Shown one piece after another: positions 24,289 to 46,923 of a stretch of DNA of 64,000 bases. Numbering within the stretch: position 1 is the first letter of the stretch; the number at the start of each line of letters is the position of its first letter. A program made the position numbers and the translations under genes. The notes beneath the pieces are model-generated. The model ran no database searches and was not told the origin of the DNA. It saw nothing but the letters and a program-made list of their open reading frames with translations. The stretch comes from an uncultured Gemmataceae bacterium (lineage in GTDB: Bacteria > Planctomycetota > Planctomycetia > Gemmatales > Gemmataceae): positions 2,112,001 to 2,176,000 of the forward strand of contig CAVVPN010000011.1 of the NCBI GenBank assembly GCA_963750165.1. The letters are read 5' to 3'.

Positions 24289-24342
24289 CTAATTTTTTTT
24301 CGCCGCCCGCAGTCGGTCGCGGTGGACGCGGGCCACGTCCCA
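24289..24342 (-). pseudogene. Displaced original 3' end of the TPR gene (WDVARVHRDRLRAAKKN*)
   Basis: Continues HYMWDVARV of the gene at 32643-33497 across the duplicated core. Confidence 0.85.
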
Positions 24343-24606
24343 TGATTATCGTAATACGTTGCTCCGCTTGCTTACCGTGACGTATCGGGTGGCCTGACTC
24401 CCGGCCCGCCCCGCCCACAATGCCCTGGCGGGGCATTGTGGGCCATTCTAGGGGGGTATCTGGGCGGGCGGCAACGGATTGCCCTGAGCCGCGTAAAATG
24501 AATGCAACGGGACGGCCGGAGTAGCTACCGGCTCGGCTCGCCCGGTCGGACGTGCAGCATCCTCTCACGCCGGTCGGGCGAGCGCTTCCCGCCTAGAGGA
24601 TGCACC

Positions 24607-25206
24607 ATGTTCGATGACCTTCCTCCCGTCGATGGACACGTCACCATCAGGATCGAACAGCCGCGCCTCCAAGTCCGCCAAAAGTTGATGGAAGCCTTGG
24701 CGCGGGAGCGGATCATCCTGGAACTCTGGGGGCCGCTAGTGCCGAACGAATTCGATTTTGGCGCGACGACGCGCGACCTGTGGGAGTTGTGGTGCGCCGA
24801 GGTAGGGGAACTGAGAGCGCCCCCGCCGAGGCCGACCCCGAGGAACTACCAGGAGACGGCCGACGCGCTTGATCTATTCCAACGCGCAGTTGATGCGCTG
24901 CCCGACTCAACGCCGCCAACACCGCCCCTTGCCCCTCGGCTAACCCTCGACCGTGATACCCTTACCGTCACACTCGACGGCGAGTCATACACCCTCGAAG
25001 ACCCGACCACCTTCCTGCTTTACGCGGCGGTCGTTGAAGCCGAACAACCCCCCATCACTGCGGACACCATTCGCGGCAAGGTCAAGGGGCTGAACGGCAG
25101 CAAGGCGGTCGTGAAGCGGATAGCCTCCCTCCCCGATTCCCTGCGGCAGATCATCAAGAGCGCCCCCGGCCGCGGTTACTGGTTCCAGCTCCCACCGTTG
25201 TCATGA
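24607..25206 (+). CDS. Hypothetical protein with possible C-terminal winged helix
   Basis: LTLDRDTLTVTLDG...IIKSAPGRGYWF resembles an OmpR-like wing. Confidence 0.65.
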   Translation: MFDDLPPVDGHVTIRIEQPRLQVRQKLMEALARERIILELWGPLVPNEFDFGATTRDLWELWCAEVGELRAPPPRPTPRNYQETADALDLFQRAVDALPDSTPPTPPLAPRLTLDRDTLTVTLDGESYTLEDPTTFLLYAAVVEAEQPPITADTIRGKVKGLNGSKAVVKRIASLPDSLRQIIKSAPGRGYWFQLPPLS

Positions 25207-25318
25207 AAAAAAAGTTCCCAAGTAGGCCCCAAGTAGGCCCTAAGTGGGCCGTTGCACGAATCCCCATTTTTCGGCAAAATGCCTCACGTTGACAACCCAT
25301 TGTCACCGGGAGGCATCC

Positions 25319-25570
25319 ATGTCCACCACGACCACGCATATCCGCATCGAGCCTGACGGCATCTATGACGATCTGGCGCTGTACCAGGCGCTGGGCATCA
25401 GCACGGCGACACTGGCGCGCTCCCGCAGCGACGGCAGCTTGCGATACACGCGCAAAGGGAACCGCACCCTGTACCTGGGGCGCTGGGTGTTGGCGTGGTT
25501 GACTGCCGGCGTCGATGACCTGCCCGACGAGGACCGCCAGACGGTTGCCGCGAACGCTGCTGAGAAGTGA
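25319..25570 (+). CDS. Small HTH, excisionase/AlpA-like DNA-binding protein
   Basis: GGAGG RBS; LGISTATLARSRSDGSLRYTRKGNRTLY. Confidence 0.7.
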   Translation: MSTTTTHIRIEPDGIYDDLALYQALGISTATLARSRSDGSLRYTRKGNRTLYLGRWVLAWLTAGVDDLPDEDRQTVAANAAEK

Positions 25571-25638
25571 AAACGGCAACCGTGCTGGGGTCACGTCCGG
25601 CACGGTTGCCTCAATCCGAAAGCACAGGGTACACAACC

Positions 25639-25959
25639 ATGATAACGCATCCTCCCCGCCCCGGCGACGGCCAGCCGCAATCGCGCTTCGCCGCGAAGAT
25701 AGCGGCCCTCAACGCTCTCGACCTGCCCCACCCCGACACTGGCAAGCCGTGTCCGCCCGTCCCACGCCCATTTCGGTTGCCCTTTGGCCGCTACCGAGGA
25801 CTTCCGCTCTCCCAGATACCGGCGGACTACCTGCTGTGGGTGTTGCGGGTGGTCAAGTTGTCCAGGGGTCTGCGTGCCGCCGTGTCCGACGAGTTGGCCT
25901 GTCGGGATATGTTCCCGCCCCTGCCGCCCGACACCCGTGTCGTCGGGAAGGGGGGCTGA
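25639..25959 (+). CDS. DUF3820-like small protein
   Basis: LPFGRYRGLPLSQIPADYLLWVL; paralog at 36748. Confidence 0.7.
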   Translation: MITHPPRPGDGQPQSRFAAKIAALNALDLPHPDTGKPCPPVPRPFRLPFGRYRGLPLSQIPADYLLWVLRVVKLSRGLRAAVSDELACRDMFPPLPPDTRVVGKGG

Positions 25960-25963
25960 CACT

Positions 25964-27445
25964 ATGCCTAAGAGTCCTAATAGCCGGTACGAAGTCGATC
26001 CGCTGCTGAACGGCCAGCACAAGCCCCCTGACGCCCCTCCCACGGAATCGCTCGGTGGCATAGCCCGCGCCTGGCTAAAGTCCAACGAACTGAACCGCCC
26101 CGATGAGGTAGAGATCGGGGCGGGGGTCGAGTACACGGACGACCCTCGTGACGAAACGGCCAGTTGGGAAGACGTGGCAAAAGTGGTGGACGGTATCAAG
26201 TGGCTCCTGAAGGGGTGGGTTCCCTACGGGATGCTGAGCGGCATCATCGCGGAACCCAAGGCGGGCAAGTCGGCCTGGGTGCTGTGGAACCTGGTCCGGC
26301 CCCTGATTACCGCCGAAGTTTGGTTCACGGGCCAGCGTCCCTTCGCGGAACCGCGGGACGTGTTGTGGATTGACACGGAGGGGAGCATCGGCCTGAACCT
26401 GGAGCGGATGAAGCAGTGGGGGCTGCCCCTTCCGCGGGTCAAGGTGCCGTTCCCCGACGACCCCTTCCGGCGGATCGACCTGAACGACAGTGGGCATGTG
26501 CAGCGCATCGGCGACGTGATCTGCAAGTATAAGACGCCCCTCGTCGTGGTGGACAGCTACCGCGGCTCGCACGGTAAGGACGAGAACAGCAGCCTCTCCG
26601 GTTCGGCCCTGAGCAACTTAGCTGACATCGTCCAGCGGACCCACGCCGCGGCCCACGTCATCCACCACACGGGCAAACTCGCCGCTGGCACAGAGATCAA
26701 CGCGAACAGCGCGCGCGGCAGCAACGTCTACCTGGCGATGGTGCGTTGCTTGCTCGGCATCGACCGCCCCGACCCGCAGAGCGACTGGCGCCGTGTCCGG
26801 GTTCTCGCCGAGAATTTCGGTGGCGCCCCGATGCCGGTTGGGTTCCTCATCACCGGCAAGGGACTGGAGTTCGGGCCGGCTCCTGAGAAGCCCCAGGAGG
26901 AACGCAAGGAGACGGGCAAGGATCGCGCCGAGCAGTGGTTGCGGGCACGGATGAAACCGGACACCCCTTACCCAGCAGCGACTATCATCGAGGAAGCCGA
27001 AGCCGCTGGCTTCAGTCATACGGGCACTTTGCAGCGCGCTAAAGCGGCATTGAATGTTGAAACGGTCAAGAGCGGGAAGCACCACTATTGGCGACGGCCG
27101 GCACTGCCGGATGAGTCCCCCGAAGGGATGCTCGGTGAGGCCGTCTGCTACACATACGCCTTGACGGACGGCACCGCGATCAAGGTCGGGAAGTCGGAGC
27201 AGAATCCGAAGGATCGCTTGAGCGAGCTACAGACCGGCAATCCCCGAACGCTACGACTGCTGGCCTTCACCCCCAAGCTGACAGAAGCCCAGGTGAAGGA
27301 GCGTTTGGCGAATCATCATCAGCGGGGAGAATGGTTCAACCTGTCTGCCCCGGTCTTGGACGAAATCACTGCTTGGGAGTGGCGCGACGAGGACGAGATC
27401 GCCAGGCTCAAGCAAGGTATCGCCGGAGGCTCCGGTAATACCTAA
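25964..27445 (+). CDS. RepA/RecA-like AAA helicase with C-terminal GIY-YIG (T5orf172-like) domain
   Basis: AEPKAGKS Walker A, LVVVDS Walker B, IHHTGK, ARGS; YTYAL..IKVGKS..PKDRLSELQTGNP..GEWF. Confidence 0.8.
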   Translation: MPKSPNSRYEVDPLLNGQHKPPDAPPTESLGGIARAWLKSNELNRPDEVEIGAGVEYTDDPRDETASWEDVAKVVDGIKWLLKGWVPYGMLSGIIAEPKAGKSAWVLWNLVRPLITAEVWFTGQRPFAEPRDVLWIDTEGSIGLNLERMKQWGLPLPRVKVPFPDDPFRRIDLNDSGHVQRIGDVICKYKTPLVVVDSYRGSHGKDENSSLSGSALSNLADIVQRTHAAAHVIHHTGKLAAGTEINANSARGSNVYLAMVRCLLGIDRPDPQSDWRRVRVLAENFGGAPMPVGFLITGKGLEFGPAPEKPQEERKETGKDRAEQWLRARMKPDTPYPAATIIEEAEAAGFSHTGTLQRAKAALNVETVKSGKHHYWRRPALPDESPEGMLGEAVCYTYALTDGTAIKVGKSEQNPKDRLSELQTGNPRTLRLLAFTPKLTEAQVKERLANHHQRGEWFNLSAPVLDEITAWEWRDEDEIARLKQGIAGGSGNT

Positions 27446-27523
27446 TCCCTTGATACCTTAATATGTTCTATTAAATATATAATAAGTATCATATTAAGAT
27501 ATCATCCTATTAGGTATCAAGGG
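27436..27523. other. AT-rich putative replication origin of element A
   Basis: Very AT-rich tract bounded by 12-bp inverted repeat CCCTTGATACCT (27447)/AGGTATCAAGGG (27512), immediately after the replicase. Confidence 0.6.
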
Positions 27524-27837
27524 GCGGGATGGCTCCCCGTGCCCCAGCTGCTTTCCCGCCGGGAACGGCGGCATGGTATCCTGACTGTGCTGGAAAACGA
27601 TTGACGTTGTAACAATGACAGCAAGGTAGCTCGCCGGTCAGGCCATGCCAGCGTCCGAGACGACCAATCGCAGACGCCAAGAGCGCAAGACTTTCCAGCA
27701 ATCTTGCTGATCGAAGGCACGAAACCAACCGTGCGTAGGGAGCCGCGAAGGAACTGGCCCCGGTGCGCGGAGGGGGGGGTCATAATGCGCGAGAACATGC
27801 CGGGGGGAGGTGGAACGCCCCCTACCTGCGGTCAGGG
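27521..27837. repeat. Conserved non-coding block shared with element B (39470-39790)
   Basis: Co-linear high similarity with small indels; no convincing ORF. Confidence 0.85.
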
Positions 27838-27839
27838 GT

Positions 27840-28420
27840 AAATACGCGGCAGGCCTTATCACCTGCCATCGCTGCTGCTCATTGAGATTGGAACCAACCC
27901 AAAATAAGTACCCCGCGAGGCAGAGGACGACCAGCAGGACGACCAGCAGGAGGATCAGGACGATTACGACAAGTGCGATCATGGACCCGGCCGTGATCCA
28001 TTGCGGGGCATTGCCAAACGGACCTTGGTTGGCGTACCTTCTTGCTCCGCTTGGTCGTCATTGCGCCTGCTCCTGCTGCGTTGTCGATCCCGCCGATTCT
28101 GCCAGTGGTTGGCCCCTTGCATGGGAGAATTTGGGAGCGCACTAGGGTTGTCTTCCTTGACCACGGGGACGAGCGCGACGGGTTCTTCCGGTTTTGGCGT
28201 GCCCCCCGTTGCCACTGGGTTGAACCGAATTGGCCCTAAATCGGGGACGTTTGGAATCATCGCCGGTGGCGCTGTCTTGGCAAGCTGATCGTCCGACAGT
28301 GGAATTGCGGGCGGGACAGTGACGGGTTGGCCGCACGCCCGGCATTTGCTGGAGCGGCCCGCGCAACTTCAGCGGCGCGGAGAGTTGCATTCCACAGCGA
28401 GGACAGGCGAAACGGATCAT
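27840..28420 (-). pseudogene. Zn-ribbon membrane-anchored protein, fragmented
   Basis: MIRFACPRCG...SKCRACGQPVTVP, Pro-rich linker and a TM helix spread over several frames. Confidence 0.5.
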
Positions 28421-29266
28421 GGGTTGTCCCTTTGGTGACGGGAATGCGCCGGCCCGCCGACGCCATGCGTAGCCGATCATTCCCACCGCACCGATGCCGA
28501 GAAGGGTTAGTGAAGAGGGTTCGGGGGTGGACACGATTTGATATTCAAATGCCTGCGTTTGACCGTTGGCGTCGATGTAGTATCCTTCCACCGTGTTTCC
28601 GGAGATGCCGGTTGCTGCCGAATACGTTGATCCGGCAGGGCTGATGTTGAGGTAGGACGAGCCGTTGTAGAGAAAGGCCGACTGGCTTGTTCCGTTGCCA
28701 TTGTCGCTCCACCAGCCGACAACGTTGTTGCCAGAAACCGCAGAGGCAATCGTGTTAAACGAACCAGGGACATATATTGTCGTGAATGTCGAGCCGTTCA
28801 AGAGGAACCCGGTGTAATGGCCGTTACCGGGTTGAGAATTGCCGATTATGTTGTTGCCAGAAACGCCAGTCGTTTCGGTGTAGGTCGCACCCGGTACGTC
28901 GATGGCGGTATAGGTCGATCCGTTTATTGTGTAGAGAAATCCGTGGAAGTTAAGGCTGGCGTCCTCGTAGATGCCGACGATGTTGTTACCGGAGATGCCC
29001 CGCAGGGTCGTACCGGGGACTCCGTTCTGGCTTGGGATTGTCACTGAGCCAGGGTAATTGATCGTCGTGTAGGTCGAACCGTCGTACAGGAATCCTTGCG
29101 TAGTACTGCCGTCTGAGTAGTAGCCGACAACGTTATTGCCATCTGCGGCGGTGGTCTGGGAGCTAACCGAGCCGGGGTAATAGACAAAACCGGCCTTCGC
29201 CTCTCGTGGGCTGCCGACGAGCGCGGCCAACACCGCACAGGCGAAAATCACAAGGCGCACGTTCAT
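28142..29266 (-). CDS. PEP-CTERM surface protein with GISG/GFLY repeats (true end probably near 28450)
   Basis: Signal peptide; TPEPSSLTLLGIGAVGMIGYAWRRR; the ORF runs on into the next gene. Confidence 0.85.
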   Translation of the reverse strand: MNVRLVIFACAVLAALVGSPREAKAGFVYYPGSVSSQTTAADGNNVVGYYSDGSTTQGFLYDGSTYTTINYPGSVTIPSQNGVPGTTLRGISGNNIVGIYEDASLNFHGFLYTINGSTYTAIDVPGATYTETTGVSGNNIIGNSQPGNGHYTGFLLNGSTFTTIYVPGSFNTIASAVSGNNVVGWWSDNGNGTSQSAFLYNGSSYLNISPAGSTYSAATGISGNTVEGYYIDANGQTQAFEYQIVSTPEPSSLTLLGIGAVGMIGYAWRRRAGAFPSPKGQPMIRFACPRCGMQLSAPLKLRGPLQQMPGVRPTRHCPARNSTVGRSACQDSATGDDSKRPRFRANSVQPSGNGGHAKTGRTRRARPRGQGRQP

Positions 29267-29428
29267 GCTGTGTTCTCAGTGGTCCAGGGATGAAGGCGTG
29301 GCGGCTGGCGCTGGGTCAGCCGCACCATCCACCAATGTACACCCTGCGCGGACTCGATGCTAGTATGTCGTTCCGGGAATTTGCGAATCGACAAGCGGCC
29401 GGGGTGGGCAGCCCCGACCGATGCCGTT

Positions 29429-29743
29429 TCATGCGACCGATGCCCCCGCGACCTCCGCGAACGCCAGGACGCGGCGAATGCGGTCGGCGGGTACGTCGTT
29501 GACGCTGTACCACAGCCCTTTCCTCGACCGCCGTAACCAGCGCCGCGGCACGTTCAACTCCAGGACCACCACCTGCTCGACTCGGCCGCCGTGGCGCTTG
29601 ACCGTGTGCAGGGTTGCCCAGCTGGACTTGTTCAGCGAGTGCAGCCATACCACCTTGAGCCGACCCTTGCTCTTGCAACAGAGCAAGCCGCCCTTCAGGA
29701 TGCTGGCCAGATTACGGGCGAGCGTTGCGTGGCGAATCTTCAT
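29429..29743 (-). CDS. Small ADP-ribosyltransferase-fold protein (Tpt1/KptA/DarT-like)
   Basis: RHAT...NLASILKGGL, VWL, VLELNV, WYSVNDVP pattern. Confidence 0.6.
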   Translation of the reverse strand: MKIRHATLARNLASILKGGLLCCKSKGRLKVVWLHSLNKSSWATLHTVKRHGGRVEQVVVLELNVPRRWLRRSRKGLWYSVNDVPADRIRRVLAFAEVAGASVA

Positions 29744-29806
29744 GGCCGGTGCCCTCCTGTAGCAAGCGGGGCGGGGTTGTGGTCCCCCGCCCCGTGGTTG
29801 CGTTGG

Positions 29807-30118
29807 TTAGAGCTTTCCGGCCGCCTGCAACGCCGCGAGTCCCGAGGCGTGCTTGCAGTGTTTCCACTTCAAGAACCCCTTGCACTCGCAACTGTGCCCG
29901 TCCGCGTTCAGGTTGACGTGGTACTCGTCCTCGCTTCCCACCTTCGACACTCGGAACCCGCTGCCGAAGTCGCTGGCCACCTTCGCCACAAGGTAGCGGT
30001 CGAGTTTGCCGTTCTGGCGAATCTCAACCACCCCTGACGAACCCGGCTCGCTTCCGATGGGCAGGGCCAGCTTGATCGTCCGTTGACGCGCCTTGCGGGC
30101 TTTCGTTACCGTAGCCAT
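29807..30118 (-). CDS. SWIM zinc-finger protein
   Basis: YHV...CECKGFLKWKHCKH. Confidence 0.8.
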   Translation of the reverse strand: MATVTKARKARQRTIKLALPIGSEPGSSGVVEIRQNGKLDRYLVAKVASDFGSGFRVSKVGSEDEYHVNLNADGHSCECKGFLKWKHCKHASGLAALQAAGKL

Positions 30119-30319
30119 TGCGATTCCTCTTCTTCAGGAATTGCCACGGGCCGGGGGTGTTGACGCACCCGCCGGCCCAAATTCGTTTCGGACCCGTTTT
30201 GCCTCCCTCTGTTTGGCAGGACGGGAACCAGTCCCCCCTGCCCGTGTCCCGCTCTCTCTCCCGGTTTCCCGGTTCCGAGCGGCAAATTGTCAAAGATCAG
30301 CTTGAAGCCATCTGTAACC

Positions 30320-30402
30320 ATTGTATTCCGCGGTATACCGCAAATCAAGGTTAGTTGGGAAAATATTTTGCGGTTTACCGCGGGATACCGAACCGCTATA
30401 AT
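30320..30402. promoter_or_regulatory. Divergent promoter/operator region of element A
   Basis: Palindromes GCGGTATACCGC (30330) and GCGGTTTACCGC (30370); rightward TTTACC-17-TATAAT; leftward TTGATT-17-TACAAT. Confidence 0.7.
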
Positions 30403-30466
30403 AGGGGTAGCCACGGCGGGCCGTTTGCCCGCATTGGGGGCGGGCCGTGGCGCTGGGGGTTTAACC

Positions 30467-30688
30467 ATGAGAGCAGCAGTGGCAAAGAAAGCTGACGGCA
30501 AGAAGTCCGGCGGGGGTAAGCACAAGGCGCCGCGCCTGATGGTGCCTCTGCCGAAGGACGTTGTTGAAGCCTTCCGCGACTGGTGCGACGAGAACCGGCG
30601 CGTCCTGGGTTGGGAGGTCGCCCACTTGATGAAGCAGTTCCTCAAAGAGCAAGGCCGCTGGACCGAGGAAGAAGGGGGTGCGCAATGA
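30467..30688 (+). CDS. Small, probable ribbon-helix-helix regulator
   Basis: RLMVPLPKDVVEAFRDWCDENRRVLGWEVAHLMKQFL; stop overlaps the integrase start. Confidence 0.6.
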   Translation: MRAAVAKKADGKKSGGGKHKAPRLMVPLPKDVVEAFRDWCDENRRVLGWEVAHLMKQFLKEQGRWTEEEGGAQ

Positions 30689-32703
30689 GTGCCACGAACG
30701 GCAACGAGCTTGATCTGAGCGGCGACGGCGCGGCATACCTGCGCGTCTCTGACGACCAACAGGATACGGTGCGCCAGTACGAATCGCTCCACGCTTTCGA
30801 GGAGCGGCACGGTGTTATCATCTCGAAACAGAACTGGTTCAAGGATGAGGGCTGGGCGCACGACACCGCCGACCACCGCCCCGACTTCCAACGGCTGATG
30901 AAGCTCGCGGAGGCCGGCGCGGTGCGGTGGATCGTCGTTGACCAACTCGACCGCTTCGGCACTAAGAACGCCAAGCAACTCATCACCTACCTGCACCGCT
31001 TGGACGAGGCAGGCTGCAAGCTGTACGACGCAGCGGGCAAGGAGTGGACCGGCGAGGACATTGCCACGATCATCACCGCCGTCGTTGAAGGAGAGAAGTC
31101 GAAAGGTGAGCAGACCAGCAAGTCGTACCGCGCCCTGAGCGGCAAGGTTGCAAGGGCGCGAGCGGGTGAATGGCAGGGCGGCCCGGTGCGCCTGGGGTTG
31201 GACGTGGTGTGCTACCACCGCGAGACGGACGATGAGCAGTGGCGGGTAGTTATGGAGGCTCTGCACAAGCGGCTGAAAGTGTACCCGGACGGCCGCACGG
31301 AGCGCTTCGACGGCCCGAACAACTTCCCCAGGTATCAACCGGCAACGGAAGTGCTGCGCATCGCCCCCAGCAACGACAAGTCCAAATTGGATGCAGCCGA
31401 GAGCGTGTTCAAGCGCTTTGCCACGGAGTCGATCAGCCCAACCACCCTGGCCCACTACCTGAACGGGCTGAGCTTCCGCACGGCCTTCGGCGGCCCCTTC
31501 CAGGGACACCACGTCAGGGCGATGCTGGAAGACCCGGCTTACATCGGGTACTACGCCTACAACCGCCGCCACTTCGGCAAGTTCCACCGCTGGGCGGATG
31601 GGCAGCCCGTCCATGAACTGAACTACGAAGAGAAGCAATCCAGGAACGACAAGGCCGATTGGGTGCAGAGCCGGCGCCTGTTCGACCCGCTGGTAGACCG
31701 TCCAACCTGGGACGCGGTGCAGAAGAAGCTCGAAAAACCGAGACGTGAGACCGCCCCCCGTAGCGCCGCGCTCTACCTTGCCGGGTTGGTGGTGTGTGGT
31801 AACTGCGGGGCGAAGATGATCGCTGGCCGTGGCAGGTCATCGAAAACCGACAGCCAACCGCTCCGGTTCGAGTTCATTTGCGGCGGCTACCACAAGGCCG
31901 TTCGCAACAAGGAGCGACTGGACACCACTTGCCTCCGCAACAGCGTCTTTCAGCACGAACTGGAACCGTACATCGAACGCTGGCTAGATGCGACGGGCAA
32001 GCGACTGGAAGTGCTTACGCAACCCCCCGAAGCCGAGCGCGGACACCTGACGGACAAGCTGCAAGGAGAACTCGTCCTGACCAACACCGCCTTCTGGGAA
32101 AACTACCTGCACATGCTGCGTTGCATCGCTGAGGAAGACCCGCAGAACTGGGCCGCGCTGTGGGAAGGGGTTCCCGAGGCGCAGGGGGTGCCACTCGAAA
32201 AAGTCATTGCCCACTACCGCAGCTGCTTCGACCCGAGCAAGTTGACGGCGGAAATTGAGAATCTGGAGGCCGAGCACACGGCTCTATACCGCCGCTACGC
32301 CGACCTACCGACCCCACGGGCCAGGGAGAAGGCGAAGGCGGAGCTAACCACCCTGGAGGACCGAATCGCCGAACTGGAGCGCCGGCGTGAGGACATCGGC
32401 GCGACTGCGACCGCCCAGTGGGCACAGGTTCTGGACTTGGCGAACGCGGTCAAGGAAGCCCGGAGGGCGATGGAGAGCGAGGACGGCGAGCGTGCTTCAC
32501 GGCGGAAGGCGGAAGCCCTCCGGGCCATCATCCAGCGGATCGAGTGTACCTTTGAGCCGACGGACCAGAGAGGCGGCGGCCACGGCAAGAAGAACGCACG
32601 GTTTGCCAAGGTGACGATCTATCCGATTGTGGGCGATGCCGCTCACTTTCGCATCGAAGCCGATAGCGTATTACGGGCAACCCGGGCCACGTCCCACATG
32701 TAA
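30685..32703 (+). CDS. Large serine recombinase (integrase of element A)
   Basis: AYLRVS catalytic Ser, RPDFQRLM, DQLDRFG, LAGLVVCGNCG Zn ribbon, coiled coil. Confidence 0.93.
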   Translation: MSATNGNELDLSGDGAAYLRVSDDQQDTVRQYESLHAFEERHGVIISKQNWFKDEGWAHDTADHRPDFQRLMKLAEAGAVRWIVVDQLDRFGTKNAKQLITYLHRLDEAGCKLYDAAGKEWTGEDIATIITAVVEGEKSKGEQTSKSYRALSGKVARARAGEWQGGPVRLGLDVVCYHRETDDEQWRVVMEALHKRLKVYPDGRTERFDGPNNFPRYQPATEVLRIAPSNDKSKLDAAESVFKRFATESISPTTLAHYLNGLSFRTAFGGPFQGHHVRAMLEDPAYIGYYAYNRRHFGKFHRWADGQPVHELNYEEKQSRNDKADWVQSRRLFDPLVDRPTWDAVQKKLEKPRRETAPRSAALYLAGLVVCGNCGAKMIAGRGRSSKTDSQPLRFEFICGGYHKAVRNKERLDTTCLRNSVFQHELEPYIERWLDATGKRLEVLTQPPEAERGHLTDKLQGELVLTNTAFWENYLHMLRCIAEEDPQNWAALWEGVPEAQGVPLEKVIAHYRSCFDPSKLTAEIENLEAEHTALYRRYADLPTPRAREKAKAELTTLEDRIAELERRREDIGATATAQWAQVLDLANAVKEARRAMESEDGERASRRKAEALRAIIQRIECTFEPTDQRGGGHGKKNARFAKVTIYPIVGDAAHFRIEADSVLRATRATSHM

Positions 32704-33497
32704 TGATTTATGCGGTGCTCCGCCGCCCGGCTCAGGTGCTCCAGCGCCTTCGCCGCGTCGCCGTTGGCCTCGTGGTACAGGCCGAGGTACAGCTGGGCGT
32801 AGAACCGCTGGCTATTGCGCAGCGCCGCGTCCGCTTTGCCGGCCTCCGCCGCCTTGAGCACAGCCGCCGGCTGTGCCTTACCCTGGAACAGCGCGTATAC
32901 CTCCATCATCGGCACACGCCGATCCTGGCCGATCTTCAGCAGGGCCGCCCGCGCCTTTTCGACGCCGACCGTCTTCGCCATGCACAGGTAGCGCCAGACG
33001 GCGTTCTCCACGTCGTTCGTGTCCACGCTCTCGTAGCCCTCGAACTGCTTGCGACCGTCCTCGAAGCGGCCCGCGTAGTAATAGGAGATGCCGCGCATCC
33101 AGTGGCCCTTCGCCTCGTCGGGCCGCAGGGCGACGAATTTGTCAAAGTCCTGGATGGATTCCGGGATGTGGCCGAGCTTGAAGTGGACGGCGCCGCGGCG
33201 GTTCCAGAACTGGGCCGCCTTCGGCTCCAGCGTCACCACCTGGGTGAAGTCCGCCAGCGCCCCCTTGAACTGGTCCTGCTCCTCACGGATGAGGCCGCGC
33301 AGGGCATAGGCGCCCGCCTCCTTCGGGTGCTCCTTGACGGCCAACTCGGCGAGACGCAGGGCCTCGTCTTTCTTGCCCGCGTCCTGGGCGGCGCGGGCGG
33401 CCTTGAACAGCTCCTCCAGACTCTTGCCCGACTCTTGCCGGGCGGAGGCGGCCACCATTCCGAGACTCACGGCGACAATCAGGAGCAACCGGCGCAT
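32643..33497 (-). CDS. NlpI-like TPR protein (target of element A; C-terminal tail element-derived)
   Basis: Signal peptide, TPR repeats, DVENAVWRYLC, FYAQLYLGLY. Confidence 0.88.
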   Translation of the reverse strand: MRRLLLIVAVSLGMVAASARQESGKSLEELFKAARAAQDAGKKDEALRLAELAVKEHPKEAGAYALRGLIREEQDQFKGALADFTQVVTLEPKAAQFWNRRGAVHFKLGHIPESIQDFDKFVALRPDEAKGHWMRGISYYYAGRFEDGRKQFEGYESVDTNDVENAVWRYLCMAKTVGVEKARAALLKIGQDRRVPMMEVYALFQGKAQPAAVLKAAEAGKADAALRNSQRFYAQLYLGLYHEANGDAAKALEHLSRAAEHRINHYMWDVARVARNTLSASMRK

Positions 33498-36213: not shown

Positions 36214-36283
36214 ACCTCCCGGAACCTGCTAAAACCTCTCTGTGCCGCGATCCTCCCCATGAATTTGTGAGGAGGACGCGGCT

Positions 36284-36475
36284 ATGTTTCTTTCCCCCGA
36301 AGAACTCGACAGGCGCATGGGGTGGAGGCCCGGCCGGGCCGAGCAACTGGCCCGCCAGCGACGACTGCCCTATATGTTGCTCCCAGATGGATCAATTCGG
36401 TTCGACTGGACCGAGATTGAACCGCTCATTGTTCGCATACCGGCTGTCCTCAATTTAGAGAGGGGGACGCCGTGA
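36284..36475 (+). CDS. Excisionase-like small DNA-binding protein
   Basis: FLSPEELDRRMGW...AEQLARQRRLPYMLLPDGSIRFDW; GAGGAGG RBS. Confidence 0.7.
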   Translation: MFLSPEELDRRMGWRPGRAEQLARQRRLPYMLLPDGSIRFDWTEIEPLIVRIPAVLNLERGTP

Positions 36476-36747
36476 ATGAACCCCTCGACTCGCTGCACGT
36501 CCCGCCGATCCCCCTGCTGCCCGTGGCGGTGGTGGAGGACACCACTGCCCGACCCGGCAACCTCACGACTGCGCTGGCGTCGCTGGTCCTGAGCCGAGCG
36601 CGCGAGCACTCTGCGCCACGGCGAGCGGGCCGAGCCGGTAGGCGAGGCCGACGACCGCTGAAGCAAATAACGGCCGCAGCGTCGGGGCGGGTACGCCACG
36701 GCCGTCCTAACACACTACCCGCATTCTACCCCAGAAAGGGGTGCCGT

Positions 36748-36978
36748 ATGAAGTTGCGTAGCAAAAACGGAGACAGATCGCGCCTGCCTTTTGGCCGCTA
36801 CAGAGGACTTCCACTTTCCAAGGTGCCGCGGGAATACCTGATGTGGGTGTTACGGGCGGTCAAGTTGTCCGAGGATCTGCGTGTCGCCGTGTCCGAGGCT
36901 TTGGCATGTCGGGATATGTTCCCGCCCCTGCCGCCCGATACCCGTGTCGTGAGGGAGGGCCGGCACCATGCCATCTAG
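36748..36978 (+). CDS. DUF3820-like small protein
   Basis: LPFGRYRGLPLSKVPREYLMWVL; may extend upstream to 36472. Confidence 0.65.
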   Translation: MKLRSKNGDRSRLPFGRYRGLPLSKVPREYLMWVLRAVKLSEDLRVAVSEALACRDMFPPLPPDTRVVREGRHHAI

Positions 36979-39082: not shown

Positions 39083-39130
39083 TACCGACGGTTGAGGAAG
39101 TGGAAATGGCCGAGGCTGAGCTGCGATCAA

Positions 39131-39311
39131 CCTAACAGCCTAACTTAGCTAACAAGGGGTGCCTTTGCCTAACTAACTAACAGGGGGTATATACCCCTGG
39201 CACATGAGGGATGAGTTACCTAACAACCTAACTTGTCAAACAACCTAACAAGATCACTGGTGACGTTCTCCCTGAAGGGGATGGGGTATGTCCCCCTTGT
39301 TAGTTAGTTAG
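39131..39311. other. Iteron-rich putative origin of element B
   Basis: About nine CTAAC and three inverted GTTAG; IR CTAACTAACTAACAGGGGG/CCCCCTTGTTAGTTAGTTAG. Confidence 0.7.
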
Positions 39312-39469
39312 ACAATTCGCTCCGGAGGACTACCACCGGGCACCGCGACGGTTGCGCGAGTTGATGGGGCAATGCTCATGCAACCTTGCTGGCCTGTTGA
39401 GGAAGTAACCGTAACACCCTGACCTGGGCCGGGCGGTCAGAGACGAGTACCTTAAAGCAACAACGAAAA

Positions 39470-39790
39470 GGGGCGGACTGGCCCCCATGCCCCAACCGCT
39501 TTCCCGCCGGGAGCGGCGGTATGGTATCCTAACTGGTGCTGGAAACCGATTGACGTTGTGAGAATGACAGCAAGGTAGCTCGCCGGTCAGGTCATGCCAG
39601 CGTCCAGGACGACCAATCCCGGACGCCAAGAGTGCAAGACTTTCCAGCAATCTTGCGGATTGAAGGCGTGAAACCAACCGTGCGTAGGGAGCCGCGCGAA
39701 GGAACTAGCCCCCGGTGCGCCCGAGGGGGGTCACAATACGCGGGAACATGCCGGGGGGAGAGTGGAACGCCCCCTACCCTGCGGTCAGGG
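39470..39790. repeat. Conserved non-coding block shared with element A
   Basis: Co-linear with 27521-27837. Confidence 0.85.
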
Positions 39791-39820
39791 CACGAGGACG
39801 GCCAGCTCGTCGTCGCCAAG

Positions 39821-41649
39821 TTACTTGCTGGGCGAGAAAACCAACACCTCCACGGTATTCAGGAAGGGCACGGTGCCTCCTCCGCCGATGGCATAGATGC
39901 GACCATCGCGACCTGTAGTCGCCGCCAGTTGACCACGCACGGTAGGCATGTTTGCGACGGGAGTCCACTTGTTGGTGCTCGGGTCGTAGGCTTCCACAGG
40001 GTTGAGATTTTCGCCTTCGGGATGTCCTCGAATGGCGTAGATTCGGCCATCCGGACCCATTGCGGCTGCAAGCGCATTACGCGCTGTTGGCATGTTGGCA
40101 ACGGTAGTCCAAGTGTTAGTTTCGGTGTCATAGGCTTCCACAGTTTTGAGACGCTTGCTGTTGATCCCGCCGATAGCAAAGATGCGACCATCCGGCCCCG
40201 TTGCGGCTGCGAGGTAGACACGGACTGTGGGCATACTTGCGACAGTAGTCCAGGTGTTTGTGCTCGGGTCGTAGGCTTCCACGGTATTAAGAGGCACCCC
40301 GCGTTGACCAGTTCCGCCAATGGCGTAGATTCGACCATCGGGGCCGGTGACGGCTGCCAGCCCATGACGCGCGGTCGGCATGGGGGCGACCGCGATCCAC
40401 ATGTTGGTACTTGGGTTGTAGGCTTCTACGATATTCGCGCCGCCAACGCCACCGATGGCATAGATGAGATTATTCGGACCTAATGTGGCGGCCAGGTGAT
40501 TGCGAGCGGTGGGCATGGGGGCCGCTTTGGTCCACTTGTTGGTATTTGGGTAGTAAACCTCGACGGTGTCGAGGCGGCCGCTGGCGTCCTCTCCGCCGAA
40601 GGCGTAGATGCGACCATCCGCCCCCGTTACCGCAGCCAGCAAGATACGCGCGGTAGGCATGTTGGCCAGACTTTTCCAGGTGGCCGGCTGAATTCCTTCA
40701 GTTTTTTTATCAAGGATGTTTTTTATCGATTCCTTGCCCGGCGCAATCTTGTCCGTTCCCACAGCGGGCTTGTCCTTCTTCCTGTCCGGGTCAGTGTCCT
40801 TCGGCCTGTCGTCGCCGCGCGGACCCTTCGCGGCCACCGGGGGGCCGTCCGGCGTCTTCGGCTCCGACCTATTGCGGACGACGAGGACGACCACGACCAC
40901 CAGCGCGACGGCCGCGGCGCCCCCGCCAGCCAGACCCATCCCGGTACGCCCGGACGCGACGGCCGGCGCCTCTCCAGGATCGGCTCCTCTTCGGGGGGAA
41001 GGGGCACGGAGAGGATCGTGCCCCGGGGAGGCGGTGGAATCTGGATGCGCTGCCCGCACTTGGGGCAGTTTAGTTTCTGGCCTGCAATCCGAGCGGGCAC
41101 CGTCATCGCGGTCTTGCACACCGGACACGCGAAACGAATCGGAGTCGCCCCCGATGCTCGCGGCCCCGCCGGCATCGGCGACAGCGGTCTGTCGGCGACC
41201 GGCGGCGAGTTCAATTCGCCCGGCTAGAAGCGCGGCAGGTCGGGCGGCAAAAACGGCAGCAGATTCTCGGCGCTGCTCAAGCGCAGGTCGGGCGGCACGG
41301 TTCGGCCTTCGGGGTCGGTCGGCCGGTACAGGGTATGGCGAACCTGGACCTGCACCTGGATCAAGTAGGTAGTCAACTTCCGCTTGACCGCGGCAGGCTG
41401 TCCGGCGGCCTCATCCTGGATGGCGGCCTGCACCGCTGCCTCGACCCGCTCCGCCGTGGCATGGGCCAGCGCCTGGAGTTCTTCGCGCGGGTCCGCTTCA
41501 GCCGGATTCTGCTTCTTCCACCGCTCCCAGACATCGGCACCGAACTCAACAACCTCGATCAGCGCACCGCCACCGGGTACGAGAGCGACGAGGAATTTGC
41601 CGATGCGGTTGACGGCAGCCTCGACACAACAATTCAGCAGGGGGAACAT
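39821..41649 (-). pseudogene. Zn-ribbon/TM/Kelch-repeat protein with in-frame TAG (41224) and frameshift (~40920)
   Basis: Six MPTAR..LAA..GPDGRIYAIGG Kelch repeats; FACPVC..CPKC; ORFs 41224-41649 and 40723-41214 share a frame across one TAG. Confidence 0.7.
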
Positions 41650-41762
41650 GGGTCACTCCGCGCAGGCTCGAGGGCGCGTTCTCCGTGATCCGAGGAAGTA
41701 GGTGCCTCACGAGGTACACACCGATTGAAAGCTGCGGATGGCGCATAGGCCGCTAAGTTGCC

Positions 41763-42869
41763 TCAAGATGACGCTGCTGCTGGTTTGTGGCGATAGCGCC
41801 GACGCCATGCGTAGCCGATCATTCCCACCGCACCGATGCCGAGAAGGGTTAGTGAAGAGGGTTCAGGGGTGGCGGCTGCGAACTGGTATTCAAAGGCTTG
41901 TGTTTGACCGTTGGTGTCGATGTAGTATCCGACGGCTGTGCTGCCGTCTATCGCCGCCAACCCGGTGGTGCCTGTCGTGCCGGGGTAGTCGAGGGTGATG
42001 TAGGTTGAACCATCGTAGATAAAGCCATGCGTTCCGGTCGCATCCTGGAAAGAGCCAACCACATCGTTGCCGGATACAGCGGCCGGCTGGGTCGAAGCTG
42101 CGCCGGGAACGCTGATTGTGGAGTAAGTCGAGCCGTTGTACGAAAACCCTTGGAAGTTGCCGCTGCTGTCTTTGTAGTAGCCAACTACTGTGCTCCCTGA
42201 AATGCCATTGGCTTCGGTATAGTTCGATCCGGGGAAATTGAGAACGCTATAGGACGAGCCATCGTAAAGAAAGCCGTGAATGTCACCTAACGCGCCGCTG
42301 CCGGCGTCGCTCACGAATCCCACGACCTTGTTGCCAGAGATTGCGGTCGCAATCGTATCAAACTCCCCTGGGACGGCGAGCGTCGTGAATGCCCCTGAAT
42401 TGTAAATAAATCCGCTGTATTGGCCAGTGCCAGGTTGAGAATTGCCGATAATGTTGTTGCCGGAGATGCCGGTAGTTTCGGTGTAGGTCGCACCCGGTAC
42501 GTCGATGGCGGTATAGGTCGATCCGTTTATTGTGTAGAGAAATCCGTGGAAGTTAAGGCTGGCGTCCTCGTAAATACCGACGATGTTGTTACCGGAGACG
42601 CCCCGCAGGGTCGTACCTGGGATTTGCGTTTGGTTTGGGAGTGTCACTGAGCCAGGGTAATTGATCGTCGTGTAGGTCGAGCCGTTGTACAAGAATCCTT
42701 GCGTAGTGCTACCGTTGGAATAATAGCCGACCACGTTGTTGCCAGAGACGGATGTCGCTTGCGAACTGACCGATCCCGGTGGATTGATTTGGATGAAACC
42801 AGCAGATGCCTCGGTGGCTTGCAAAAGAAGCGCGAAGGCCATAGCAAAGGCGAAAGGTGTATCTTTCAT
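41763..42869 (-). CDS. PEP-CTERM surface protein with GISG/GFLY repeats
   Basis: Signal peptide; TPEPSSLTLLGIGAVGMIGYAWRRR identical to the element A copy. Confidence 0.9.
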   Translation of the reverse strand: MKDTPFAFAMAFALLLQATEASAGFIQINPPGSVSSQATSVSGNNVVGYYSNGSTTQGFLYNGSTYTTINYPGSVTLPNQTQIPGTTLRGVSGNNIVGIYEDASLNFHGFLYTINGSTYTAIDVPGATYTETTGISGNNIIGNSQPGTGQYSGFIYNSGAFTTLAVPGEFDTIATAISGNKVVGFVSDAGSGALGDIHGFLYDGSSYSVLNFPGSNYTEANGISGSTVVGYYKDSSGNFQGFSYNGSTYSTISVPGAASTQPAAVSGNDVVGSFQDATGTHGFIYDGSTYITLDYPGTTGTTGLAAIDGSTAVGYYIDTNGQTQAFEYQFAAATPEPSSLTLLGIGAVGMIGYAWRRRYRHKPAAASS

Positions 42870-43252
42870 GGTGCTACCAAAAAAGTAGGAGCGACGAACC
42901 AAAGCCGCTCCTCAAACCCGACCAAGGGTGCTACAGAACGGACCCTGGCCGCCGCCCCTTTCGGGGCGTGGCTTGGTCCGCTTCTGTAGCTTCAAGAGCG
43001 TTTCCGCTCAGGTTGGTCGTTTGAAGAAGCGAAGCCATGCTCAACGCATGGTTCAAATTGTCAACGGGCCTTGTCTGGCCCGGTCAATGCTCTGGCACTC
43101 TCCGTCGTCCGAGGATGCATGAACAGCAGTTGGCCCAGCGCCAACCGCACCACCTGGGAGTCTACACGAGGCGCGCGACCGACGCTAGATGCCTGAACGG
43201 GAATTTGCGAATCGACAAGCGGCCGGGGTGGGCAGCCCCGACCGATGCCGTC

Positions 43253-43567
43253 TTACGCGACCGATGCCCCCGCGACCTCCGCGAACGCCAGGACGCGGCG
43301 AATGCGGTTGGCGGGTACGTCGTTGACGCTGTACCACAGCCCTTTCCTCGACCGCCGCAACCAGCGCCGCGGCACGTTCAACTCCAGGACCACCACCTGC
43401 TCGACTCGACCGCCGTGGCGCTTGACCGTGTGCAGGGTTGCCCAGCTGGACTTGTTCAGCGAGTGCAGCCATACCACCTTGAGCCTACCCTTGCTCTTGC
43501 AACAGAGCAAGCCGCCCTTCAGGATGCTGGCCAGATTGCGGGCGAGCGTTGCGTGGCGAATCTTCAT
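43253..43567 (-). CDS. Small ADP-ribosyltransferase-fold protein (copy 2)
   Basis: One amino-acid difference (D/N) from 29429-29743. Confidence 0.6.
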   Translation of the reverse strand: MKIRHATLARNLASILKGGLLCCKSKGRLKVVWLHSLNKSSWATLHTVKRHGGRVEQVVVLELNVPRRWLRRSRKGLWYSVNDVPANRIRRVLAFAEVAGASVA

Positions 43568-43630
43568 GGCCGGTGCCCTCCTGTAGCAAGCGGGGCGGGG
43601 TTGTGGTCCCCCGCCCCGTGGTTGCGTTGG

Positions 43631-43943
43631 TTAGAGATTTCCGGCCGCCTGCAACGCCGCGAGTCCCGAGGCGTGCTTGCAGTGTTTCCACTTCAAGAAC
43701 CCCTTGCACTCGCAACTGTGCCCGTCCGCAGTTCAGGTTGACGTGGTACTCGTCCTCGCTTCCCACCTTCGACACTCGGAAACCGCTGCCGAAGTCGCTG
43801 GCCACCTTCGCCACAAGGTAGCGGTCGAGTTTGCCGTTCTGGCGAATCTCAACCACCCCTGACGAACCCGGCTCGCTTCCGATGGGCAGGGCCAGCTTGA
43901 TCGTCCGTTGACGCGCCTTGCGGGTTTTCGTTACCGTAGCCAT
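43631..43943 (-). CDS. SWIM zinc-finger protein (copy 2; +1 frameshift near 43730)
   Basis: Near-identical to 29807-30118 apart from one extra base. Confidence 0.75.
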
Positions 43944-44138
43944 TGCGATTCCTCTTCTTCAGGAATTGCCACGGGCCGGGGTGTTACAAGCACCGCCGGC
44001 CCACTTTCGTTTCGGACCCGTTTGCCTCCTCTCCGTTTGGCGTGGCGGGAACCAGTCCCCCGCGCCCGTGTCCCGCTCTCCCTCCCGGTTCCCCGGTTCC
44101 GAGCGGCATCTTGTCAAAGAACTGGGCTTGATTGCCTG

Positions 44139-44537
44139 TTACTGCTTCTTCTTGCCGCCCTTAGCCGCCGGCTTGCGCGTCAGGCCCAGCGCCTCCAACT
44201 CGTCGTCGCTGAACGCCGCCAACTTGGCGGCGACCGCCTCCTTGGTGACCGGTGCCGCCTTGGTGCCGGTGCTGGCGCTGTAGCCGTCGAGCTGGGCGGC
44301 TCTGCTGATGGCGGGGTCGTATCCGATGGCCAGGATCCACCCCTTCACCTCACCCTTAATCGCGATCTCGAACGCGCGAGTGTTCTTGGGCGGGTTGGCG
44401 GGTTTGGCTGCCAGCGCCTCGTCGCGCGTGGCAAACAGCTGCTTGGGCAGCTCATCCCGAGTGGTGGCGGTGGTCTCGGGGGCCGTGGCCTGGTCCGTTG
44501 CCGTTGTGTTCGTGGTCGTGTTCGTCGTGTCGGTCAT
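44139..44537 (-). CDS. Hypothetical protein with basic C-terminus
   Basis: AAGGGG RBS; first gene of the leftward operon; absent from element A. Confidence 0.7.
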   Translation of the reverse strand: MTDTTNTTTNTTATDQATAPETTATTRDELPKQLFATRDEALAAKPANPPKNTRAFEIAIKGEVKGWILAIGYDPAISRAAQLDGYSASTGTKAAPVTKEAVAAKLAAFSDDELEALGLTRKPAAKGGKKKQ

Positions 44538-44617
44538 GGTCGTTCCCCTTTTCGTAAACCGTCGGGGCCGGGCCGGGCGGGAAACCCCCGCCCCGTTGCC
44601 CGCGCCCATCTACCCTA

Positions 44618-44722
44618 ATGATACCGAAACTTCGGTAGTGAGTCAAGTCCAGTAGTACCGAAAATTCGGTATTCCGCAACCCGAATACCGGACTTGAATT
44701 ACTACCGAAGTTTTGGTACAAT
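44618..44722. promoter_or_regulatory. Divergent promoters with three operators TACCGAA-NN-TT(C/T)GGTA
   Basis: Operators at 44622, 44656, 44703; rightward TTGAAT-17-TACAAT; leftward TTGACT-17-TATCAT. Confidence 0.8.
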
Positions 44723-44746
44723 GGGCGGCGAAAGGAGGGAAACCCC

Positions 44747-45001
44747 ATGACCACGTTCGGCGAGAAGTTGAGGGAACTACGGGACGCGGCCGGGATGACG
44801 CAGACGGCGCTGTCAGAGGCCGCGGGTGTACCCATCGGCACAGTGCGGGACTACGAGCAGGGGGTGCGCGACCCGCTGCTCTCTAACGCCCAGCGCCTGG
44901 CGAAGGCGCTGGGCGTCAGTCTCGACGTGTTCCCCCCGACGGTGCCGCGACCGAAGAAGGGGAGAGGTAAGGCGAGGGGCAAGAAGGGGGGTGGGAAATG
45001 A
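44747..45001 (+). CDS. XRE-family HTH regulator
   Basis: FGEKLRELRDAAGMTQTALSEAAGVPIGTVRDYEQGVRDP. Confidence 0.9.
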   Translation: MTTFGEKLRELRDAAGMTQTALSEAAGVPIGTVRDYEQGVRDPLLSNAQRLAKALGVSLDVFPPTVPRPKKGRGKARGKKGGGK

Positions 45002-45156
45002 TTAGCGCGAAGGACGAGTTGCACCACCTGGCGGACTGCATGTCTGAGGAGGAGTGCGAGCGGGCATTTGAGCTACTGCGGCAGGCCGGGATGACCGGAC
45101 CCCAAGACGATGACGAGCCTGACGAGCCAACCACTGTGGATGAGGACAAGCAATGA
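44998..45156 (+). CDS. 52-aa acidic hypothetical protein
   Basis: ATGA overlaps with both neighbours; MISAKDELHHLADCMSEEECERAFELL. Confidence 0.55.
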   Translation: MISAKDELHHLADCMSEEECERAFELLRQAGMTGPQDDDEPDEPTTVDEDKQ

Positions 45157-46923
45157 GCACCACGAACGGCAACGGCAAGCTGGACCTCGACCGGGCTTGC
45201 CTCTACCTGCGCAGGTCCACCGATGACCAAGTGCAGTCCATCGACCGCCAGCGCGGCCAGACCACCGCCTACGCCGCCGCCAGGGGCTACCGCGTCATCC
45301 GGGAATACACCGATGAGGGGATCGCCGGCGACGTGTTCGACCGCCGCCCCGACTTCCAGGAGATGCTCGCCGCCGCCGGGCGGGGCGAGTTCGAGGTCAT
45401 CGTCGTCGATGAGCCATCTCGCCTGTCTCGGCAGAACCCCATTGATCTAATCGAGAAGGTCATCGCCCCCTTGCGGCGTTCGCGCGTCCGCATCGACACC
45501 GCCTCCAAGGGGGTGCTCGATTACGAGTCGCTGGCCGGCATTATCATGATGACGGTCCACGCCCACAAGTCGGAGGACGAGTCGCGCGACCTGTCCCGCC
45601 GCAGCCTGGGCGGCATCACACGGCGGGCGCAAGCCGGCCTCTGGTTCGGCTGGATACCGCCCTTCGGTCTGCGGATCGTCCGCGAGACGGACCCCGCCTC
45701 CGCCAAGGTGACGGCGCGAAAGTGCATCCACGGACCCGATGAGGAGGTGAACGCCGTCCGCTTCATCTTCGACGCCGTAGCCAACCGGGGCTGGTCGCTG
45801 CGGCAAGTGTGCCGTGAACTGGAGGCCCGCGGCGTCAAACCGCCCGCCGGCAACGGCCGCGGGGCGAACAAGGCCGGGGGCAGCTGGAACCCCGGCACCG
45901 TGCGGAAGATTCTCACCAACCGCAAGTACGTCGGCGACCTGACATACAACGTCACCCACCAGGGGAAGTATTCTTTCCTCTCCGGCGGTCGCGTCGAGGC
46001 GCACGGCGTCATCAACCGCCGTGTCAGCCGCAACCCCGATGAGGACATTGTTGTCGTGCCTGTCCCGGACCTCATCCTGCCGCTGATCGACCGCGACACC
46101 TTCACGCGCGCCGGCGTCGCCCTGTCCCTGGCGCAGAAGCGGACCACCCCCGGCACCGCCGCCCGCTACCTGTTCACTCACCTGCTTGTCTGCGGTGACT
46201 GCGGCTCGTTCATGCGCGGCCAGCCCGACCACGGCCACAAGGGGTACATCTGCTCCCGGTACAAGGAGTATGGCAAGTGCAGCCGCAACACCGTGGGTGA
46301 AGAACACCTCAAGCGGTCACTGCTGACGGCCCTGCTCGACGACATCCTCAACCCGAAGCGGCTCGACGAGGTAGAGGCGGAAGTGGAACGCCGTATCAAG
46401 TCGGAGCGCTGTTCCGGCGAGGCGGATCGTATCCGGCGCCAGGTCGCCGCCCTCGATAAGGACATCGCGCAGGGCAACATCAACCTCGCGCTTGCCCGAA
46501 GACCGTCACCCCGGCGTCATCAACCAGTTACGTCTGTGGGAGGGCGAGCGAGCCGGGCTGCTGTCCCGCCTGAACGACTTGGAGCACGGAGCCGAGCACG
46601 AAAAGGCGGTGCTGGCCGAAGCGCGCCGGCAGCTGTGGCGTCTGCGGGAGGCACTGGAGGGGGACGACGAGGAGGCGCAGGCGACCGTCTTGCGTGAGGT
46701 GGTCACGAAGGTTGAAGTCCGCTTCACCCACGAGCGGACCCACGGCAAGCGCAGCCCCACGGGCGAGGGCCGCGTCCTCAGCCGGGCGGCCGGGGCGGTG
46801 CTGTACGTTCGGCCCGGCCTTGGTTTATCCCACTTGTTTACTTCGGATTCCAGAAATCCGGCTCGCGGCGGTGCATCAGGCCGTGCCAGTAACTGCCGGT
46901 CGGCGTCGCGATGTCCTGGCTGA
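45153..46923 (+). CDS. Large serine recombinase (integrase of element B); frameshift near 46492
   Basis: LYLRRST, SIDRQ, RPDFQEML, SRLSR, LLVCGDCG; continues in ORF 46492-46923. Confidence 0.9.

Follow-up and report, generated by a model that had tools for sequence, protein, structure and literature searches.

Serine integrases drive the mobility of phages and islands and serve as genome-engineering tools, and a central question about them is how integration and excision are controlled. In Tn4451/Tn4453, the large serine recombinase (LSR) TnpX is expressed from a promoter that is created by the circle junction. In the SPbeta-like Bacillus phage vB_BsuS-Goe14 (Goe14), a serine integrase that targets spoVK has attP within its own C-terminal coding region; the accessible part of the preprint reports that integration shortens the integrase by 131 residues and leaves a 97-amino-acid (aa) open reading frame (ORF), and its authors speculate that the long form made on the circle integrates and the short prophage form excises (bioRxiv 10.1101/2021.11.22.469490). 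For Int (IntP/IntX) of the Myxococcus phage Mx8, the available text of a review describes an attP inside int, a new 3' end made by integration and a prophage form that is active with changed specificity (PMC6070905). Integration-dependent immunity in actinobacteriophages of the BPs/Brujita type relies on an attP near the 3' end of a gene, where integration removes an ssrA-like destabilizing tag of 15-18 residues, as stated in those portions of the sources that were available (PMC6109161; CyranoPS preprint 10.64898/2026.10.29.762952). Archaeal SSV-type 'suicidal' tyrosine integrases also carry att inside the ORF, and there integration splits and inactivates the gene, according to the excerpted source (PMC7253208). 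Here we analyse a window of 64,000 nucleotides from an uncultured Gemmataceae bacterium (GCA_963750165.1, contig CAVVPN010000011.1, positions 2,112,001 to 2,176,000), which contains two elements, A and B. With high confidence, these are two integrated LSR elements in which the attP crossover lies within the last integrase codons. Given that the crossover falls inside the integrase ORF in both, the integrated and the excised form encode different C-termini. Our favoured explanation, to which we assign a probability of about 0.5, is that the integrase end depends on the recombination state and carries a control tail.

The 9.6 Mb host genome of the window holds both elements in the integrated state, within 24.3-46.9 kb of the window and with 2.4 kb of host genes between them; the LSR gene of each is at its right end. 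Element A (24329..32696, + strand, 8354 bp between cores) is bounded by an exact 14-bp repeat, CGGGCCACGTCCCA, present as the attL core at 24329..24342 and as the attR core at 32683..32696. Its integrase, IntA (30682-32703, + strand), comprises 673 aa in the integrated form, with an N-terminus that agrees with its homologues, and matches in order the Pfam domains PF00239 Resolvase (7.5e-16), PF07508 Recombinase (1.1e-16) and PF13408 Zn_ribbon_recom (2e-05); a serine in the catalytic region (S22) is invariant in the family alignment. Element B (35164..46851, + strand, 11684 bp between cores) has the core TTCC, at 35164..35167 (attL) and at 46848..46851 (attR), the latter five codons past the last conserved motif of its integrase (YVRPGLGLS.L). 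This integrase, IntB (45153..46923, + strand), was delimited by Pfam hits, frame translations and homologues, and it has the same three domains in the same order (6.2e-23, 3e-16 and 5.9e-12). IntA and IntB share 34-38% identity, counting the aligning segments only.

The borders of both elements are supported by loci of relatives with empty sites. The flanks of A are contiguous in three of the nine relatives' loci holding a TPR gene (L009, L013 and L010), and in these three the 27-28 bases to the left of A's left core continue the TPR gene directly, which places the insertion of A in the last TPR codons. The target gene now occupies 32643..33497 on the - strand (Pfam TPR hits). The attL core of A lies in the antisense of its displaced 3' end, while the attR core falls both within the last IntA codons and, on the opposite strand, within the TPR 3' end. 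The TPR protein ends in ..ARVHRDRLRAAKKN in the empty site and in ..ARVARNTLSASMRK when A is integrated, a replacement of equal length in which the last 12 codons come from the antisense of the IntA 3' end, so that the stretch 32643-32703 codes on both strands. For B, one of the three relatives' loci compared (L015, genome G009) is an empty site that joins both flanks exactly at TTCC. The target of B is a conserved gene with no Pfam match, intact in L015 (252 aa, motif HRREPDFGNSKYWFRR) and split in the window between ..HRREPDF and GNSKYWFRR.., into an N-terminal fragment (46852..47161, - strand; ..WHGLMHRREPDF, then four element codons and a stop at 46838) and a C-terminal fragment (34902..35167, - strand; GNSKYWFRRVGKHPVFEPL...). 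Many of the 96 IntB homologues end with the antisense of this same host gene (..SDCRSPARGGASGRASS..PG before the stop), and these shared endings indicate that the IntB family usually targets the split gene.

Both attP sites, reconstructed from the element ends, show dyad symmetry centred inside the shared core, with 16 of 26 positions symmetrical in each. The axis falls between 32689 and 32690 in A and between 46848 and 46849 in B, and of 500 shuffles only 1.4% for A and 0.6% for B reached this symmetry. Such symmetry is as expected for serine-integrase sites, and so is the anatomy of short dyad sites with a shared core, here of 14 bp in A and 4 bp in B.

In the integrated state IntA ends in ...RATSHM, the last two codons and the stop (32701-32703) being host DNA. 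Integrated IntB reads ...LSHLFTSDS followed by RNPARGG...RCPG, that is, 24 codons of host antisense up to a stop at 46921-46923. The sequence agrees here with the first-pass annotation, which had described both integrase frames as crossing the right core and stopping in host DNA. The same annotation held that joining the element ends in silico yields in-frame tails, and the corresponding frames are indeed open at the left cores, to 24397 in A and to 35218 in B. Across the left core copy, the IntA frame reads RATSHDYRNTLLRLLTVTYRVA up to the stop at 24395-24397, i.e. RATSH and then the circle-only tail DYRNTLLRLLTVTYRVA (24343..24397 with the stop, + strand, in frame with the core). Reading on after the left TTCC, the circle-only tail of IntB is PNEQAGYAVQVPLALA (35168..35218 with the stop, + strand). 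That the recombination state decides which C-terminus the integrase gene encodes is borne out. In DNA of 62-66% G+C, a frame that stays open over a tail of 16-20 codons is unremarkable in itself; it is the conservation of the tails in relatives that exceeds chance.

We propose the following sequence of events. On the excised circle, the integrase gene would end with a short, conserved, flexible and non-polar tail (17 residues for A, 16 for B). Integration would move the tail-coding DNA to the far left end of the element, and the gene would then end after two (A) or 24 (B) host antisense codons, with all folded domains present in both integrase forms. The tail would act as a state-specific control peptide, and integrase made from the circle would behave unlike integrase made from the integrated element.

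The survey for A-type tails covered 120 listed IntA homologues and 139 further representatives at 50% identity. Most IntA homologues end at the core or just after it. An ending in ..RATS[HP]M denotes the TPR target, while endings in ..SSAHSxM/I and ..SSAHSRMKRTRVGRMR represent the 3' end of a PNPOx-like gene read in antisense, as seen in the DNA of L018/G070 and of six out of six metagenome loci. A-like tails were found in six of the 120 homologues, namely P0059 (TRSITLLHRLLTVRYAC), P0061 (LDHRILLFRLLQGTYKVA), P0020 (FKQIITMDLLLQVRYVA), P0105 (TTRLLLRLLTVRYIVG), P0091 (MALITKLLTLHYTAAA) and P0016 (..LSVLLKITYHV and then 18 more residues), and in one of the 139 further representatives (P0233). 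The tail-bearing proteins differ in their core (TRATS, SAHS and others), which points to different targets. Their tails share the motif L-L-x-R-L-L-x-x-T/R-Y/F, with a stop two to four codons later in eight of nine A-type tails, the exception being P0016, where the frame extends over 21 codons. Two other IntA homologues, P0039 and P0079, end in ..SEWALEYHTVPL and ..SEWALTYHEVPLE, which corresponds to the sense-strand end of the PNPOx-like target and not to its antisense; these two may reflect an insertion at this site in reversed orientation, or an attP arm that is palindromic.

DNA for a second A-type tail comes from genome G070, where a 12.5-kb element is integrated in a different target, the PNPOx-like gene, and its integrase ends in that gene. 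At its left junction the displaced native end of the PNPOx-like gene (..REWALDYHEVPVP) abuts the core, and the int frame after the core reads LERSNTLIRLLRMTFRIGR to a stop. Over 14 codons, the tails of A and G070 differ at 19 of 42 bases, and yet eight residues are identical and 13 similar, with seven of the eight identical residues using different codons. When 19 changes were placed randomly in 100,000 trials, at least eight identities were kept in 0.4% of the trials and 13 similar residues never. The retention of identical residues through different codons argues for selection on the protein encoded by the A tail. Averaged over all pairs of nine tail-bearing proteins, identity amounts to 0.40 for the tail, 0.33 for the preceding 40 residues and 0.50 for the remainder of the protein. 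On this sequence evidence, the A tail behaves as ordinary coding sequence.

Among the 96 IntB homologues, four carry a B-like tail of the pattern N-[ED]-Q-x-G-Q..V..[LI]..A: P0136 (SRNAEVGQVVTVPIRAA), P0162 (SKNEQVGQCLEVALGPNE), P0166 (RSTQVGQEIVVPLAG) and P0172 (IPNDQEGQVIELKLEVA). The first-pass annotation had proposed weighing the tails of homologues against random read-through, and in both families they prove to be conserved rather than random. In both LSR families, the tail is probably a translated peptide under selection.

The same conservation could be read in a different way, as the mark of DNA signals close to attP (accessory integrase sites, the promoter of the first element gene or an antisense gene) with the tails themselves untranslated. 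The first five to eight tail codons do overlap the inverted arms of attP, and the - strand has a promoter-like site at 24474-24445. We nevertheless consider this reading very improbable, since the substitutions in the int frame are synonymous in pattern and the frame stays open through the motif to the closely following stop described above. The conserved A motif is also located beyond the inverted arms, at 31-49 nt from the centre of attP, which makes an integrase-binding half-site an unlikely explanation for it. An antisense gene was considered and rejected: the antisense frame sharing third positions with int is a stretch of 33 codons between stops in the window, with no plausible gene, and in G070 it is an Arg/Gly/Pro-rich out-of-frame sequence.

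A further reading accepts translation and denies regulation. The tail would be the ordinary end of the integrase, attP would be placed there to supply the host gene with a 3' end in antisense, and truncation would be a tolerated by-product. The replacement end of the same length that the IntA antisense gives to the TPR gene fits this well, and so does the PNPOx-like gene, whose end is restored by the antisense of the int end in G070 and in all six metagenome loci. In the relatives that target this gene (L018, 12112-12220), the int end in antisense gives the host gene the sequence ..EWALEYISVPL.., mimicking the native end. Conservation of the tail no higher than that of the protein body (0.40 versus 0.50) and, in the structural model described below, the survival of all folded domains after truncation are also in line with a tail of no regulatory meaning. 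Element B, on the other hand, shares the design and yet splits its target mid-gene, restoring nothing, and the arrangement is found in two divergent LSR families. In addition, a tail that is under purifying selection but lost in one state must have a consequence in that state. We therefore regard this explanation as rather unlikely, and return to a tail that controls the integrase.

What such a tail might do was approached through structure and composition. In an AlphaFold2 model of the tail-bearing P0059 (alignment of 100 sequences), the mean predicted local distance difference test score (pLDDT) is 89, and confident prediction extends to residue 720 of 748. Residues 721-748, which span the core-encoded residues and the tail (732-748), score below 50. 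This suggests that the tail is probably an exposed peptide and that the truncated form keeps every folded domain. As the first-pass annotation had remarked, both circle tails are non-polar and end in Ala, A in RVA and B in LALA. The enrichment of Ala that it proposed to look for is also present, with eight of 14 circle tails ending in Ala as opposed to 14 out of the 205 remaining endings of the two families (Fisher p 6e-6, a value that is overstated because the sequences are related and represent two lineages, not 14 independent events).

This last restriction is one of several points that weigh against a control tail. The disorder predicted for the tail is weak evidence, because only seven sequences cover the tail columns of the alignment. 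The tail-bearing homologues were chosen by eye from protein listings, and regular expressions caught four of the six A-type and three of the four B-type tails. The codon-level test compares two A-type tails, those with DNA, and the contigs of the tail-bearing homologues are assumed to be circles or tandem copies. In the window's own assembly, neither left end occurs in a second copy, and hence there is no circle contig. The B homologues are known as proteins only, and the first eight codons of their tails could be conserved as an attP arm rather than as a peptide. Finally, element B may be dead, given the frameshift of IntB in the assembly.

This frameshift had been raised as a caveat for a position near 46492, and in the assembly the frame does change, with ..NINLA encoded before and LPEDR.. 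after the shift (about 46486-46495). The first IntB frame runs on into an Arg/Gly/Ala-rich sequence and stops at 46697. IntB homologues span only 84-87% of this 514-aa frame and continue in the other one, the second frame being that of homologues of 555-630 aa. The frameshift may be an assembly error or a real mutation. If it is real, element B would be immobile by its own enzyme and its tail would be a relic. Even so, the arrangement is ancestral in its family.

Considering these points together, some state-specific regulatory role of the tail appears to us about evenly balanced against none. Our leading guess for this role would be turnover, with the tail as a C-terminal signal that makes the circle-encoded integrase short-lived, closely followed by a tail that promotes integration or prevents excision. 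A degron specifically is a tentative assignment, and a degron of the ClpX type has several observations against it. The host tmRNA tag, AEPQFSMAA, ends in MAA, and only three of the 14 tails end in AA. The terminal residues vary (VA, GR, AC, VG, AAA and KKK in the A family; LA, AA, NE, AG and VA in the B family), and the best-conserved part of the A-family tail is internal (LL.RLL..T[YF]). A hydrophobic C-terminal degron of a non-ClpX kind is possible.

The data agree just as well with a role in direction or activity as with a degron. The tailed enzyme made from the circle would then be the integration form and the tail-less enzyme the excision-competent one, or the reverse, and the tail would replace or assist a directionality factor. 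The coiled-coil region governs direction in LSRs, and in the model the tail would leave the protein just past the final strands beyond the long coiled coil. The conserved internal amphipathic motif, moreover, is more in keeping with a binding interface than with a terminal tag. The same switch is put forward as speculation by the Goe14 authors, in the available part of their preprint, for a serine integrase with no sprB equivalent (bioRxiv 10.1101/2021.11.22.469490), and the accessible review text gives the prophage form of Mx8 Int an altered specificity (PMC6070905). Against such a switch, the model shows no docking of the tail, where pLDDT is below 50, and the tails of A and B are unrelated in sequence. 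The only hint of a candidate directionality factor comes from 25244-25570, where HTH_17 matches weakly (E 0.008) and does not reach the cut-off. Like the degron, this switch is a conjecture that we hold with some reserve. If a control tail is nonetheless what these ends encode, integration versus excision would be controlled with no separate directionality factor, or in addition to one.

The metagenome contigs yielded the six loci mentioned above, all of them integrated in the PNPOx-like target and none with a tail, and the sole close match among genome contigs, L018, is the same element as in G070. An order-level search of 267 genomes for full-length family members returned only G070, G229 (a partial match) and G116 (a fragment, on a contig from which the left end of the element is absent). 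A phylum-level sample of 401 genomes, searched with a C-terminal profile, gave a match in the window's own genome only. A query with the IntB C-terminus returned from the 267 genomes only relatives at 34-38% identity, with endings that could not be aligned. For G229 and L019, left ends were guessed from repeats, giving cores of 12 and 14 bp and unrelated tails; these were not trusted and not counted. No IntA relative was found in a viral contig collection scanned with the IntA family alignment. The window's own genome encodes a third large serine recombinase elsewhere, in a 542-aa frame (G000:C2:17106-17456).

Downstream of the A tail, 16 nt past its stop codon, lies a perfect 14-bp hairpin with a 3-nt loop (24413..24443, + strand), with a folding energy of -37 kcal/mol over 24395-24460 (z -2.4) and no T run. 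A consensus terminator scan did not call this hairpin, which may form the 3' end of int transcripts made from the circle. A strong hairpin after the tail was seen in A only, with nothing comparable after the tails of B or G070. On its left side, element A adjoins a clpX gene (22298-23749; AAA_2 domain and ClpX zinc finger), with a large hairpin and T run at 24200-24300 between them. The presence of clpX beside element A is probably a coincidence of the target site.

As to cargo, element A encodes an AAA_25/MUG113 protein (25784-27445) and a PEP-CTERM protein (28142-29266, - strand). Element B encodes a prim-pol (36968-39082), a five-blade Kelch propeller protein (39821-41128, - strand), the source of the 135-147-nt tandem repeats at 39882-40682, a second PEP-CTERM protein (41763-42902, - strand) and an HTH_3 protein (44747-45001), one of the small HTH proteins found across A and B. 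Both PEP-CTERM cargo proteins contain internal repeats. No virion gene was recognisable among the scanned ORFs of the two elements. Several blocks common to A and B reach 86-99% identity, and within the spans 27519-30296 and 39467-44120 the shared blocks range over 81-100%, as with 29374-29673 and 43198-43497 at 98%. The sharing of these blocks despite differing integrases and targets suggests a recent exchange of modules between the neighbouring elements.

The arrangement had been put forward in the first-pass annotation as one not known for serine integrases. This has to be corrected, given that the accessible part of the Goe14 preprint describes it (bioRxiv 10.1101/2021.11.22.469490). The design is thus already known, from Mx8 among tyrosine integrases and from one serine integrase, Goe14, and is barely described. 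Our literature search found no LSR with an integration-dependent C-terminus apart from the Goe14 preprint, and the available text of Durrant et al. 2022 (PMC10083194) does not mention an LSR C-terminus changed by integration. If the tail alters stability or direction, it would constitute a simple natural control circuit, one that for serine integrases has been raised only as speculation in one preprint. The occurrence of two unrelated tails in two neighbouring LSR families of one genome would then suggest a general design principle of LSR elements. It is a speculative extension, to which we give modest credence, that many serine integrases are built-in state sensors in which recombination adds or removes a short conserved tail that sets lifetime or preferred direction. 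For integrases cloned from integrated copies, the annotated gene would be one that lacks its native end.

As in Mx8, attP lies in the int gene of both A and B; the Mx8 enzyme is a tyrosine recombinase, with other chemistry and another control of direction. Mx8 Int reportedly also exchanges a much longer C-terminal segment than A and B do. In phages of the BPs/Brujita type it is the repressor that is truncated, by a tyrosine integrase, whereas in A and B the serine integrase itself is truncated, and its tails are not clearly ssrA-like. Unlike the SSV-type integrases, an A-type integrase would, according to the model, keep all folded domains in one piece and exchange only its disordered last residues. 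TnpX resembles A and B in that expression is tied to the recombination state, but there the control region is at the 5' end and not at the C-terminus. Goe14 likewise has a serine integrase gene that spans its attP. It is a large phage of Firmicutes, whereas A and B are 8-12-kb elements of Planctomycetota with different LSR families, and instead of losing 131 residues these integrases exchange only 16-17 residues for two or 24 encoded by the host. The argument from family-wide conservation is made here for A and B, and in the accessible preprint text on Goe14 we found no such argument.

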